Notes under the pieces: model-generated
Told to the model about the DNA's origin: nothing
The model's input: only the letters and a program-made list of their open reading frames with translations
Databases searched by the model: none
Part shown: piece by piece, positions 1 to 61,207 of the stretch
Layout: each line of letters begins with the position of its first letter
Position numbering within the stretch: the stretch's first letter is position 1
Assembly (NCBI GenBank): GCA_024137785.1
Contig: JAHRHZ010000069.1
Coordinates: 22,280,750-22,344,749 of the forward strand
Direction: 5' to 3'
Length of the DNA: 64,000 nucleotides
Source of the DNA: Ginglymostoma cirratum
Lineage: Eukaryota
Program-made: the position numbers and the translations under genes

Positions 1-706
1 CTAATTGTCCTTAAACTGACTTGAGTTGCTAGGCCATTTCAAAGGTCACTTGAGAGTCAACCCCGTTCCTACGGGGCTGGAGTCACATAGACAAGAGTGA
101 GTAAGTTTCTAATGTAGAAGGTTCAATAACTAAAGGATATATTTTCGAAATAATTGGCCAGGAGTCGGGATGGAAGTGAAGAGATTTTTTGTAACATGGC
201 AAGTCGATATGGTCTGGAAAGAGTGGTACAAGATTCAACAGTAATGTAGAAGGCACTGTGTGCTTGAAGAAGAAAACTTTACAGTGCCAAGGGGAAAGAG
301 CAGGGAGTGGAACTGTTAGGATAACTCTTTTAAAATACTGCACAATGTGCAAAAAGGCCTTTTATTGTGCAGTGTGATTCTGTGATCTTCATTATATTTT
401 TATATTATTAACAAATTGGTCAATGATCTTATAAATTATCTGAAGCCAATGAACTATAGAAGTAGTTAATTGTATATGAAGAGCTTTGAGATGTCTCATG
501 ATGTGTTTATCAGTACAAATCTTTTCCTTCTCTCATTGCTGATGTTACAGTAATTAGACAACGCTTAGAACCTTGAATCAACTGGAAGACTATTTTTGCC
601 ATTCTACCAGTGCATTCAGGTCTCACAAGCAACAAGGGTCATTGAGCTACTTAATCTGTAGTTAAATATATTACGTGGTGTGGCACTTCATTACCAGTGA
701 ATCCTT

Positions 707-821
707 TCAGAACCCTCTTCCCCTCCCCCATTTCTGATGAAGGGTTTCGGCCCGAAACGTCAAGTTTTCCTGCTCCTATGATGCTGCTTGACCTGCTGTG
801 TTCATCCAGCCCCATGCTTGT
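707..821 (+). mobile_element. Short Penelope-like pLTR-derived insertion with hammerhead motif
   Basis: Near-identical to the copy at 23577 and similar to 61104. TSD aatcctt at 700-706 and 822-828. Confidence 0.75.
730..765 (+). ncRNA. Minimal type I hammerhead ribozyme motif, intact core
   Basis: attt-CUGAUGA-a-GGG uuucgg CCC-GAAAC-GUC-aagu. All conserved core bases present; stem III reduced to palindromic ACGU; predicted cut after C761. Confidence 0.7.
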
Positions 822-3502
822 AATCCTTAACCTACACCTGAATTCTTCAATTAGCCCTGGTAGCTCAAGGTTATGGTGAGGAACTGTGAGCTGGCTGTGT
901 GCATATGTGGGACAATAGAACTGAGATTAAATGGGATGGATCTCACTGTTCCTAAATTCAAATCTCAAAGAATAAACTCTTAAGTGAAGTACCATGAAGC
1001 TTCAATGGAATTATATCTCAGCAGGATTTGTAGCTTCTACAGAGGAGGGGTAAGGTGAAGCATCTGAGAAAAGTGGGAAGAAGCAGGTTTTGATAGCCAA
1101 ATCTCAAAAGCAGACTTGAAGTGTATAGAATAAAGCCATTTGGCCAGGAACACCATAAGTGGTTAGTATAGCGTTTTTGATGCCAACACTGACAGATGGG
1201 GCAGTCTGCTGGAGACCACAGTTCTCATGCTGCTATCACATAGAGCCTTTATCTGTCTTGACATTTGCCTAGTGGATTTCATAAATGTGATAATTTTGCC
1301 TTAAATGGTCTAATATTCTATCTGCTGCGTTTGACACTTTTTTGGTTTAACCTGAGCTCTGCTGCACACCAGTAGTGACTAATCAGCTTGTAATGGTGTG
1401 AGAAAGATCAGACACAGTGAACTATTTATAAAACGATGCATCTCTGCAGTGCAGAATAGTGCATCAATATTTAAGTAACTGATGTTGAATTGTACCCAAT
1501 TACAATTTCAGTGATATCCAATGTGATATGTACCTATGGTAAAACTGTTAGGGGCAGATAGAGTCAAAGAATATCTATCTTTTAAATCTGTATTTATCTT
1601 TATTGAGGACAGAGAGCTTAGCCTCTCTGCAAAGAGAACTCGAAACCGTCCCAGAGTCCAATGTTCCACAGCCCTTCTAAGTTGACACAATATTCAGGGT
1701 GCTTCATTTTATCTCTGTGTCCTTGGACAAAGAGGGGAAAAGTTCAGCTGTGATTTTTCACTTGTGATTGGCATGCATGGCCCTTGCTGAAAACTTGTAG
1801 GAGTGAATGCATGTCACCAGACTTGGCTAGCTCTCTGCCCTGAAAGGAGAACCTCCAAAAAGGCAGAGTGCTGGAGGGCTGACACCAGTATTCGTGTAAG
1901 AGGAGAGACAAGGCAGCAATTCGTGGGGCCATATTTTTGGAATAAGAAATATTCTTCAGATTTTTACAGTTTTATTTTCCAAATAGAACTTTATGGAAGA
2001 TGAAGATAAAATGGATATTGTTAAAGAATAGGGAGAGACTACAGGTAATTCAGCTTAGCACATGATTACTCAAGCAGACACCCAATCCAGATTTTGAGAG
2101 AGGCCTAAAATCATGATCTTGTAATGTTGGGAATAATATGAAGTATATACAGTGGTGGAGGGGGAAAGAGATAAAAACTACAAGTTCCATCAAAATTCTG
2201 CCTCATTAATCTCAATTTATTACATGAGATAAAATACATGCATCGCAGTCAGGATAGGAATGATTTATAGACTTTACATGGATTGTCAAATACCTTTAAC
2301 TAAATAACATTTTTAAATCAGGCTTCCAGCTGTTTCAATCATCCTTTTAATAGCATAGATAAATTATATTTAGTGCATGTGTCTGATTGATGCTGTGAAT
2401 TACACACTGGTACAATTCAACATGGTAATGACTCAGCTTCTGTAAGTTCCAAGCTCTGGCATCAAGTGGAATCCTGTAAAGCTCTGTATCTGGAAGCTTC
2501 TATGTATTTTGGCAATACCCAAAATGAGTTAGAGTTAGCTTTCAGTAGGTTGTTTACAGCCATGAGAAAGGAGGATGCATGCCTTTAATAATCATAACAT
2601 TCAAAAAGAAAGCTGGATTCTGAATGCTGAATTCTGACATTAATATCATTTGAGTTTGATCATCTTTCATACACTTTGCTAGGTATACATAATGCTAGCC
2701 TAGTTGCTGGATGGAGATTCCATGTCAGAGGTATAGCTGCACCTTTTGTTGGTTGATCCTGTTGGCAGCAACCATGGAGAAGCATTATTGCTGGGATGGA
2801 TGTATGATTCCTTATTGGAGATTGCTCATTTTGCAGGCAACGTAAGGAAGTAGGAACAAGTTCATAATGATCGGTATAAATGCTTTTCTTTGTGAACGTT
2901 ATGCTGCAGTGTAAACCTTCATATTTTTATATGACATAGCTACCAGAAGAGATTAGAGTAATGCAGAACTTTATTGAAGCAGCTCTGTCACATCTGCACT
3001 GTCATTCTGCATACATTTGTGAGGTGTTGTAATAGTTGGGTATCCATAAACCCATGAATGTTGCTCTGCTTGCACAAGCTTATGAATGAAAAATGGCTGG
3101 AAGTTATGTAAGTAGGGAAGCAAGTGAAGTTTAAGAAAAATTGAATTCCTGCAGTTTGAATGGGAACATTAAGATTCCTTTTTATTTTGCTGTTACCAGT
3201 TTCCCATAGCTGAAGTTGTGGAAACTGTTTTGCTTCTGCTTGCAGGATTTGATTTCTTAGGCCATGCAGATTTGTTTAGACTGCTAGCCTCAAGGCTGCT
3301 GATTCACAAGTCAGCATTACCTAGGATTCATTGTGCTATAATCTATCTCATCAGACTATGAACACAATGGCTGACACAGAACTTATCACGGTCCAAGAAC
3401 TATATGCTCACAACACGTTTAGAGGATTTCCTATGTTTTTTTTTAAGAAGTTGTGTTATTGCAATGCTTCTAAACGTGTGTTCTTGTTTTGCTATCTTAC
3501 AG

Positions 3503-3531
3503 GGCCGCCTCCGAAGAAAAGCCCCAAGTCG
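3503..3531 (+). CDS. MAGI1: MAGI1 29-nt micro-exon (G)PPPKKSPKS, just after PDZ2
   Basis: Acceptor ttcttgttttgctatcttacAG, donor TCG|gtaagt, phase 1 to 0. Peptide resembles mammalian GLPVPKKSPKS and joins the next exon in frame. Confidence 0.88.
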
Positions 3532-14757: not shown

Positions 14758-15120
<363 letters not shown>

Positions 15121-22883: not shown

Positions 22884-23576
22884 GTATGTTCAGGTGAATT
22901 TAATTACTGAAAATAGATGCAGTGTTTGATGAAATGGTATTAGATCAAGGCCATTTAAAGATGGGAATACTTATTAATATTATGTTTAGTATTATTATCT
23001 TAAATCCAGTGCATGTGGAGATCAGGGAGAGGAGTTGCAGTCATGTAATTTTATTGCCATTCACTCACTATTTGATCAGCAAGGTGTTCACTTGACCCCT
23101 GCCACTTTTCAATCAGCGTCTCTGGAAGCACTAAAATGAGCTAAATTGCTTTATTTTCTGTTGTTTCCTCCAACTTCATGAGGCAATGCTTGTCTTCTGC
23201 TCAATTTCTGCTGCTTAATTCACACTTGCCTCAAAAGCTTTTGGGGAGATTAGAGATGGAAACTCCCAATGTGACGTCAATTCTTGCCACCACACAGCAA
23301 AACGTATTAGTGTACCATTATAGTATTGGGCCAATATCTCAATGTTTGATGTTTTGGTAAGGTAGCTGACTTTGCTTCTGAAAATTACCTTTTGGCCTTA
23401 GCATTTATTTCCTGTTTGTAGGAGGCTAGCCAGTGTGTTATTTTAATGCAAGCAAACAATAAGAAGGATTTGAGTCCATAATTATTAATTTAAGTACATT
23501 AATACGATTTTAGTGTAACCAGTCACAACTGAAATGCTTAAACTGAGTGAACTAAACGGTTAAGCCAAACTCCTTT

Positions 23577-23670
23577 TTTCTGATGAAGGGTTTAGGCCCA
23601 AAACGTCAAGTTTTCCTGCTCCTATGATGCTGCTTGACCTGCTGTGTTCATCCAGCCCCATGCTTGTTAT
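23577..23670 (+). mobile_element. PLE-derived insertion with hammerhead motif carrying G12A (CCCAAAAC)
   Basis: Two differences from the 707 copy over about 90 nt. TSD ctccttt at 23570-23576 and 23671-23677. Confidence 0.78.
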
Positions 23671-24117
23671 CTCCTTTGCATCACTACTTTTTTGAGGTGC
23701 AACAAATTTTGAAATGACTTAAAACTATCAATACTAGATGAATTATTGAGCAGTTTCGTTAAGAAACACAGAAGCACATTGTTTTTGACAACGTTGTTGC
23801 TGATTTTTATTTTGTTTAATAATCCAAAACTTACATAGAATATTTCAGGAAAAAAAACAGACATTCTGCCAAACAGATCTGTTGTGGTGTTTGTTACACA
23901 TGAACCTCCTTCCATTTGAACTCCTATTAGCACAATCTGTTCAGTTTTTTGTTAATTATCTGACTATATTCTCCAGTTATGTCTTTGTAATTATCTTTTT
24001 TTTTCTTCAATAAATCCATATTTACCTGAACCATTCTGTTTACATTCTGATTGAAGAACTTTGTCCTGAATTGCTTATTGGATTTTGGTATTTTTAATCA
24101 TCCTGTCTAGGGATGTT

Positions 24118-58756: not shown

Positions 58757-58860
58757 TGTTCTCACCTAAGTTTCCCTTAAATGTTTCTACGAGAAGTTGG
58801 ATTCTCAAACCTTGGTATGTTGGGCAGAATACACTGATTGGCTACAGGGCAAGAAGTACC

Positions 58861-58973
58861 TTGTATATTGGGCTTGTGTATCTATGGTACTGTGGCTTGT
58901 ATGTTGGGCTTGTGTATCTATGGTACTGTGGCTTGTATATTGGGCTTGTGTATCTATGGTACTGTGGCTTGTA
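58861..58973. repeat. Minisatellite, 36-bp unit x3.1
   Basis: ttgtatRttgggcttgtgtatctatggtactgtggc head-to-tail with one mismatch and no spacers. Confidence 0.95.
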
Positions 58974-61103
58974 AATAAACTGTTGGTTTCTCCATTATTT
59001 GAAAATACCACTCTATTGCCAGTTCTGAGGATGATAGTATTGTGACATGAAAAACAAAATCACCTGAAAATTCTTAGGATATGCAGAGAAAATTGGGGAG
59101 AATGAGAGAGAGAAACACAAACTACACAAATGGAAGATGTAGCAGCACAAACTAGGGGAGAGTGAGGGGTAAAAAAGACAATTAGGAAAGGGAGAGATTT
59201 TAAAAAAATGCGAGAGTGCAACGCATGCATATACTTAAAAGGAGAGGGAAAGAAGGAGGAACACAAACTAGAGTGGGAAAGAGAGACAACTTTGGATGAG
59301 GCCCTTTCATGCTATGTTGCGTGTTGTGTTTCATTATGAGATTCAGGCAACTTTAGTGCTGTGGAAGACAATGAGTTCTATTATTTTTGGTTTTATTTAT
59401 TATTTTTATGTCTTGCTGCATTACAAAATGTCATAAAATTGTAAGAAAACTGAATCCAGATGTTGTGTCAGTGTTTTGATTGTGTCTGTAGCTGGTTGAT
59501 GTTGCTCATTGCTGTCGATATTCCCCAAACATAACAGAAATAGTGAACATGGGGGTGCGAATTTTAGGCCTTAGTCTATTCAATGTCGCTGGGCATGTTT
59601 GTGCTGTTGGACCATGAGGCACATTGCTGCTGTATCTTTGGTGATTTTCTGAAGGCTGGATTTGTAGTGGTGACATTGGTCATGTACAAGCTGTGGGTAA
59701 CCACTTAAGCGTGTTGTAGATCTGCTAAGGCTTATAGTCAGAGGCTGGCTAGAATTTTGCATTTGGTTTCCAGGCGCCCAGAGGCATTAAGACGCAGGGC
59801 AGCTACCTAGAGATGGCCTTAAAGACTTGAGACCAGAATTCCTGGCAGGCTTTGATGCCCTTTTTGCACGTTTTCATCTGCAGCCACAAGCTAACCTGTT
59901 TGAGGATTCTGTCCATCATCATTGCCAAGCTGCTGAGGGTATTTTCACATCAAAGCTTAAAATATTGGAGGTTGCCTGTACCTTGGAGTGATCATTTATC
60001 TCAAAAAGACATGTTGTTTCTTCAGTGTCAGACAGTCTCCTATTGGCCCTCCAGCTTTGAGACCCCAAGAATGGTGAGCCTACCTTTTTGTCAATAATTG
60101 GCTAATTCATGGAAAATTAAAGTTGGTGAGTTTTTCTCACATACTGTGGACTTCTGACTGTTATTTGACTCAGGCATTATGATTCTGAAGCCCATGGAGA
60201 AAATTTTGTCCTGGATATATTCCCTGGAGTTTAGATGAATGGGAGAGGTGATCTTAATGAATAATACGAAATCCTAAAGGAATTTGACTGAATAGATCCA
60301 GGGATCCTCTAGCAAGGGAGTCTGGTCTTATTGACTCAGAGTCAGCATGAAGGAGGACTGAGAGAAATTTGTTCGGACAGTCATACAGCACAGAAACAGA
60401 CCCTTTGGTCCAAATAGTCCACACTGACTATAATCCCAGACTAAACTAGTCCGACCTGGCTGCACTTGTCCCATATCCCTCCAAACATTTGTTTTTCATG
60501 AACTTATCTAAATGTCTTTTAAACATTGTAACTGTATCTGCATCTTCCTCTGGAAGTTCATTCCACAAACGAACCACTTTGTGTAAAATAAGTTGCCCAT
60601 CATGTCCTTTTTAAATCTTTGTTTTTCCTTCTTAAAAATATGCCACATCATCTTGAAATCCCCCACCCCAGGGAAAGACATCTGCCATTCACCTTATGTA
60701 CATCCCTCATAATTTTATAAACCTCTGAGTCCACCCCTCAACCTCCTACACTCCTGTGGAAAAAGTCCCATCCTATCCAACCTCCCATAACTCAAACCCT
60801 CCATTCCTAGCAACATCCTGGTAAATCTCTTTGAATCCTCTCCAGCTTAATAATATCCTTCCTGTAACAGGGCAACCAGAACTGAACACAGTACTCCAGA
60901 AGAAACTTCATCAAAGTCCTGTACAACCTCAATATGATGTCCCAATCCTATAGTCAAAAGTCTGAGCAATGAAGGCAAGCGTGCTAAATGTACTCTTACT
61001 CACCCTATCTATATATGATGCAAACTTCAAGGAATTATGTACCTGAACCCCTAGGTGTCTCTGTCCTACAACACTACCCAAGGCCCTACTTTTAATTGCC
61101 CTT

Positions 61104-61207
61104 CTGATGAAGGGTCTAGGCCCAAAACGTCAAGCTTTCCTGCTCCTAAGATGCTGCTTGACCTGCTGTGTTCATCCAGCTCTACACCTTGTTATCCCCT
61201 ATTATCT
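61104..61207 (+). mobile_element. PLE-derived hammerhead-bearing insertion (G12A) nested in a CR1
   Basis: Perfect 15-bp TSD cttttaattgccctt at 61089-61103 and 61208-61222. The insert begins at CTGATGA. Confidence 0.82.

Follow-up and report, generated by a model that had tools for sequence, protein, structure and literature searches.

A minimal hammerhead motif in a MAGI1 intron of Ginglymostoma cirratum lies in the truncated end of a young Penelope-like element and is very probably an inert passenger

The window analyzed in this work is a stretch of 64,000 nucleotides of the Ginglymostoma cirratum genome (contig JAHRHZ010000069.1, forward strand), and the gene that hosts the features described here is MAGI1, on the + strand. 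Used as a query, the exon at 14758-15120 returns MAGI1-named proteins, the best of which are from sharks and rays with up to 85% identity, and these proteins align exon by exon with the + strand between -340,663 and 53,462 (window coordinates). The host intron extends from about -6148 to 3502 (9.65 kb), and the end of the preceding exon lies about 6.15 kb ahead of the window. The exon mapping bore out the placement, in a preliminary description of this DNA, of a hammerhead core in sense orientation in the intron ahead of a 29-nt exon. The features of this intron are the following:

700..706, + strand: left target-site duplication (TSD) AATCCTT, whose final 2 nt also match the element; it occurs just once in run X15, where the site is empty
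707..821, + strand: 5'-truncated 3' end (pLTR) of a young, probably Neptune-type Penelope-like element (PLE), without the optional tail; 115/115 identity with 8 copies
730..733, + strand: AUUU, putative helix I 2.x strand by sequence (predicted pairing probability as a monomer at most 0.02)
734..741, + strand: catalytic box CUGAUGA (734-740, C3 to A9) and the extra nucleotide A741, according to the consensus of PMC4209133, Fig S3 (in part)
742..753, + strand: helix II of 4 bp in total, formed by G742-C753, G743-C752, G744-C751 and the wobble U745.G750, with a UUCG loop
754..761, + strand: GAAA (754-757), the palindromic ACGU (757-760) and C17, which is C761; the putative scissile bond is 761/762
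762..765, + strand: AAGU, helix I 1.x strand that pairs with 730-733, one of the pairs being U.G
822..828, + strand: right TSD AATCCTT, whose ATC overlaps the usual end of the element
3503..3531, + strand: 29-nt MAGI1 coding exon with AG/GT borders that terminates the host intron (protein-to-genome mapping)

In a related species (run X15) the orthologous site is empty, and its contig reads the left flank, one AATCCTT and the right flank. Because of this empty site, the TSDs on both sides and the 115-bp length of the insertion, both part of the preliminary description, are confirmed, and the insertion is lineage-specific; this comparison is based on one species, whose contig over 841-2400 shows 103 substitutions and 20 gaps and whose identity in this intron is about 92%. 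Contigs of four sequencing runs were also inspected over 200-1500; none of them bridged the insertion site, and repeat matches dominated. Further along the intron, run X11 matches 1583-2400 at about 96% identity, and runs X13 and X14 show no differences over parts of it; one run, whose RNA type is only a guess, contains 330 intronic bases.

The origin of the insert is evident from its copies. Positions 707-821 are identical (115/115) to 8 copies in L101-L108, found among 10 long loci that were fetched and chosen for similarity. In L101 the identical 115 nt start 133 nt behind a frame of 694 amino acids with reverse transcriptase (RT) and GIY-YIG domains, which agrees with the earlier assignment of the motif to the minimal type I hammerheads of PLE pLTRs. 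When the genome was searched with the insert, with a query that included the TSD, the 40 copies scored out of 1667 candidates were all 98-100% identical; with 734-812 alone, the 40 scored out of 1181 were all 100% identical, and the element end-points were counted from this second search, given that the insert query is biased by its TSD. Longer copies extend 5' into the frame with RT and then a C-terminal GIY-YIG domain. The L101 frame matches RVT_1 with an E value of 3.3e-6 (27.4 bits, below the cut-off of 29.6) and GIY-YIG with 4.7e-5 (24.1 bits, above the cut-off of 22.6); the CCHH motif of the endonuclease and the CX2-5CxxC linker are present, the latter as C-x4-C-x2-C. This linker is described in Neptune and Nematis, and not in Penelope/Poseidon (PMC8557442, in part), and since a preprint on retrozymes (bioRxiv 10.64898/2026.07.22.740005, in part) finds only Neptune and Poseidon in vertebrates, Neptune is the likelier clade of the parent element.

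With the Neptune EN+ elements (PMC8557442, in part) the family shares the single RT and C-terminal GIY-YIG frame, the CCHH motif and the linker, as well as an optional tail of 30-40 bp and inverted 5'-truncated neighbours; in contrast, the MAGI1 copy is a non-coding stub of 115 bp, and the clade was assigned by motifs. The tail is found in 10 of 30 copies, which end about 35 nt further on, and 12 of 73 young copies adjoin an inverted copy. For the 30 loci taken from the 734-812 search, most attempts to call a TSD were uninformative, for instance because of inverted flanks. A junction test was carried out on 33 young copies, the MAGI1 insert included (the 73, minus the 12 with an inverted neighbour and 28 without usable flanks); at least 7 bases were shared at both junctions in 20 of the 33, versus 4.4% of 1056 mismatched pairs. 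A full pLTR-ORF-pLTR tandem was sought in the 10 long loci, in which the copies were 5'-truncated, inverted or covered only in part. The PAc Poseidon elements of Anolis (PMC11167929, in part) likewise carry a hammerhead in the pLTR, and two alternative 3' ends give rise to the tail; they differ in belonging to the Poseidon clade, which lacks the linker motif, and in that their reverse transcription starts without homology to the target, whereas several of the shark TSDs overlap the element end. These TSDs open with 1-4 bases that match the 3' end of the element (700-706/822-828, 23570-23680, C17:29975969, C17:29992996 and C28:36362943), hinting at microhomology-assisted priming. It was also observed that at L101:5054-9175 a near-intact PLE (the 694-aa frame) interrupts another RT-coding repeat, whose frame resumes beyond it.

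The segment 730-765 fits every feature of the consensus of PLE minimal type I hammerheads (PMC4209133). The CUGANGA and GAAA..UH boxes are present (734-740, 754-757, U760 and C761), A741 is the extra nucleotide between 9 and 10.1, G742-C753 is the G10.1-C11.1 pair, and the topology is of type I with a helix I that is short by sequence (4 bp including one wobble). Positions 15.2/16.2 are palindromic and helix III is lacking; the ACGU palindrome at 757-760 supplies it in a dimer only. The preliminary description had read CUGAUGA, a GC stem II, GAAAC followed by GUC and a 4-bp stem I in sense, and the sequence is as it claimed; its stem II of 3 bp is right for the three G-C pairs, which a fourth U.G pair extends to 4 bp. 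The core pattern has 2 matches in the window (734 and 48282) and none in 100 of 100 shuffles. A hammerhead search of the Infernal or RNAmotif type, as suggested at that time, gave a divided outcome: a structural descriptor found 13 motifs in 464 kb, while all 20 Markov controls, of 447.5 kb each, were free of them, and the Rfam hammerhead families gave no match at the gathering threshold, nor at E values up to 10 within 1-3000.

Published PLE minimal hammerheads have the same CUGANGA box with the extra nucleotide, G10.1-C11.1 pair, GAAA and palindromic CG at 15.2/16.2, the same short helix I without helix III, and occur mostly as solo 5'-truncated copies. They differ in that the 56 motifs in Fig S3 of PMC4209133 (in part) include no cartilaginous fish, in that helix II is short here (4 bp with a UUCG loop), and in copy number, published as about 4,000 in coelacanth and 9,000 in Xenopus versus an extrapolated 10^5 or so in this shark. 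PLE hammerheads are already published for fish, amphibians and reptiles; among the papers listed by our searches we found, by title and abstract, no report of them in sharks, and the retrozyme preprint (in part) covers one chondrichthyan, with supplements that may list shark motifs.

The core had also been described as intact, which holds for the sequence and not for the predicted fold. Nearest-neighbour folding, which does not include the tertiary energy of the core, co-transcriptional folding or proteins, gives -3.4 kcal/mol for the hammerhead monomer versus -9.3 for a misfold in which the first box pairs with the cleavage strand, and, for the dimer, -5.1 for the hammerhead versus -23.8 for the best alternative. 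In the bare 36-mer, helix II is predicted with a probability of 0.99 and helix I with at most 0.02. When the flank is included, 699-712, which contains the TSD, is predicted to pair with 732-747 (P=0.99) in a 14-bp helix that would trap the core; the folding of the region is no better than that of its shuffles (z -0.41). Within the element itself, 707-715 is predicted to pair with 739-747, which includes the 5' strand of helix II (P=0.95 for 707-780), and this pairing is a possible built-in off-switch in all the copies that keep that flank. Besides its fold, the motif depends on a partner: in the Forster-type dimer model (PMC4209133) the cut site belongs to the partner strand, and for this reason cleavage at 761 needs another intact core. 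A single minimal hammerhead of S. mansoni is inactive and its dimers are weak (PMC4209133), and the hammerhead of the anole PLE requires the protein of the element, with no reads ending at its site (PMC11167929, in part). No tandem repeat was found at the insert and no intact partner motif within the host intron, where the families have only one other match, at -3676, a family-B copy whose motif is broken.

Elsewhere in MAGI1 the same families are abundant. The gene contains 72 matches (37 sense, 35 antisense), of which 11 are complete motifs (4 sense, 7 antisense); the copy at -300,351 differs from the 730-765 motif by one loop base. Three further sense copies lie in the window:

23577..23671, + strand: second sense copy, from the family of 707-821, with G12 changed to A and a 7-bp TSD
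48282..48351, + strand: sense copy from the second of the two hammerhead families, with the core intact and the 5' arm of helix I absent
61102..61197, + strand: third sense copy, from the family of 707-821, with G12 changed to A and a 15-bp TSD, beyond the last coding exon of MAGI1

The two G12A copies are ready-made natural inactive controls. Around five MAGUK genes (1,685,329 unmasked bases), 379 matches to the two related families include 38 complete motifs, which extrapolates to about 10^6 family matches and 10^5 complete motifs in the whole genome, from a sample that is not random.

Selection on the inserted copies was evaluated by orientation, decay and covariation. Complete motifs across the five genes are distributed as 13 sense and 18 antisense (p=0.47), and incomplete copies as 120 sense and 129 antisense (Fisher test versus complete, p=0.57); with 31 complete intragenic motifs, mild selection is still compatible with this result. 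A hint of a depletion of complete motifs in sense had appeared in the first 1.0 Mb (7:16, p=0.09); the test was fixed before new sequence was added, in which orientation is supported by exons, and there the ratio was 6:2, leaving the depletion unsupported. One DLG-type gene carries 6 complete sense motifs in 200 kb. Decay was followed in 62 of the 198 family-A copies, picked by flank only: non-CpG core sites differ in 16 of 606 cases (2.6%) and control sites in 68 of 2216 (3.1%; p=0.69, gaps excluded), and the CpG sites of the core in 42 of 246 (17%). Broken boxes occur in none of the 17 youngest, 12 of 27 middle and 10 of 18 older copies. At the family level the core thus decays at the rate of the control sites, with no sign of purifying selection after insertion; the MAGI1 copy alone is too young to tell.

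Across subfamilies, on the other hand, the majority bases of the catalytic boxes are constant, in contrast to N7, loop II and helix I, which vary. As far as sequence comparison goes, this suggests selection on the active element and not on the inserted copies, and, because the boxes are constant, the motif is probably functional within the element itself. In 161 parsed copies out of 204 spanning ones, the pairs II.1-II.3 of helix II do not covary, and II.4 shows a one-sided change between U-A and U.G; in helix I, pair I.3 is G-C in family B (38/59) versus U.G in family A (39/102), with a U/C mismatch in another 39/102. The preliminary description had taken missing stem I/II covariation among genomic copies as a sign against the ribozyme; what exists is weak, one two-sided change between families at I.3 and none at II.1-II.3. 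In an apparent age series of family-A copies (L031-L240), helix I grows from 2 bp in the older to 3 and then to 4 bp in the youngest, and loop II ends as UUCG, changes that may reflect selection on the active element.

From these analyses we consider it very probable, with the folding part dependent on prediction, that the MAGI1 intron carries a TSD-flanked, 5'-truncated 115-bp end of a Neptune-type PLE whose hammerhead is an inert passenger that looks intact only through its youth. The endonuclease and RT of the element would have inserted the truncated 3' end by target-primed reverse transcription, which may have begun at the closer of two initiation sites and broken off once 115 nt had been copied. 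If the motif acts at all, it would do so in the tandem RNA of the element, where a partner copy, with the ACGU helix III shared between the two, and probably the element's protein would allow slow cleavage; alone in the MAGI1 pre-mRNA it would have no partner and a misfolded core. Even a rare slow cut in this intron would probably be compatible with splicing, given that slow intronic hammerhead cleavage is compatible with splicing and a fast HDV cut is not (PMC2995048, in part). A meaningful self-cleavage site in MAGI1 pre-mRNA, where the preliminary description saw a possible one, is not supported: the motif is one of 11 complete ones in the gene and of about 10^5 in the genome by extrapolation, its intron contains no intact partner, the predicted fold is a misfold, the relative lacks it in the orthologous intron, and the family to which it belongs shows neutral decay without sense depletion. 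Against the inert reading we counted that other transcripts could in principle provide many trans partners. The single MAGI1 locus matters little in itself, although the confirmed empty site makes it a clean example; its family provides an age series and naturally occurring G12A controls, and a useful negative, since introns appear to tolerate PLE hammerheads on the sense strand in very large numbers. This apparent tolerance fits the view that the motifs are nearly inactive outside the element.

An unlikely alternative is that cleavage is conditional, occurring at a low level when the PLE protein or another PLE-bearing RNA provides a second core in trans, and leaving MAGI1 output unchanged or nearly so. 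The motif has every catalytic nucleotide as well as the ACGU palindrome, a protein-assisted PLE hammerhead has precedent (PMC11167929, in part), some young copies retain a long open frame (694 aa in L101), and the possible partners number about 10^5 by extrapolation. However, the intermolecular contact would amount to just 8 weak pairs, the predicted dimer fold lies far above its alternatives, the core is predicted to be sequestered by the local helix, and G12 is missing from the two neighbouring sense copies, 23577 and 61102. A bolder version, to which we give very little weight, is that the protein and RNA of an expressed Penelope element activate in trans the roughly 10^5 complete minimal hammerheads of this genome, many of which lie in sense within introns, and nick host pre-mRNAs genome-wide, MAGI1 included; if true, transposon activity would be tied directly to the integrity of host pre-mRNA.

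It is highly improbable that the motif is a domesticated intronic ribozyme that regulates the splicing or termination of MAGI1, similar to the ultraconserved intronic hammerheads of amniotes (RECK and others; PMC6155905, in part). These conserved intronic hammerheads set a precedent, being also of type I, intronic and in sense, and the MAGI1 motif has intact boxes and lies in sense orientation 2.7 kb upstream of a micro-exon. Nonetheless, the amniote motifs have canonical folds and are conserved at orthologous sites, whereas the MAGI1 motif is of the minimal kind, confined to one lineage and carried by a mobile family: the relative, whose intron is about 92% identical, has an empty orthologous site, the insert is 100% identical to transposon copies, helix III and a loop-loop architecture are absent, and near-identical copies exist elsewhere in MAGI1 on both strands. 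Non-LTR retrozymes (bioRxiv 10.64898/2026.07.22.740005, in part) also carry PLE-derived type I hammerheads, many of them intronic, and differ in forming tandem arrays with at least two motifs, in contrast to the solo copy in MAGI1. That part of a repeat resembles a hammerhead by accident is just as hard to sustain, in spite of the missing Rfam match, the scarce compensatory change in the stems and a helix I of merely 2 bp in older subfamilies, given that shuffles yield no matches, the published PLE consensus is matched in full at the expected pLTR position, and the changes between subfamilies avoid the boxes.

Other structures were observed in the window. In the same intron, 2467-2566 forms a long imperfect hairpin with a weak match to the Rfam mir-30 family (19.6 bits, E value 0.67, gathering threshold 50.2), probably due to chance. 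A degenerate 24-bp repeat is located at 53135-53329 within the last MAGI1 coding exon, and a tandem repeat of 36 bp (3.2 units) at 58860-58973 downstream of that exon.
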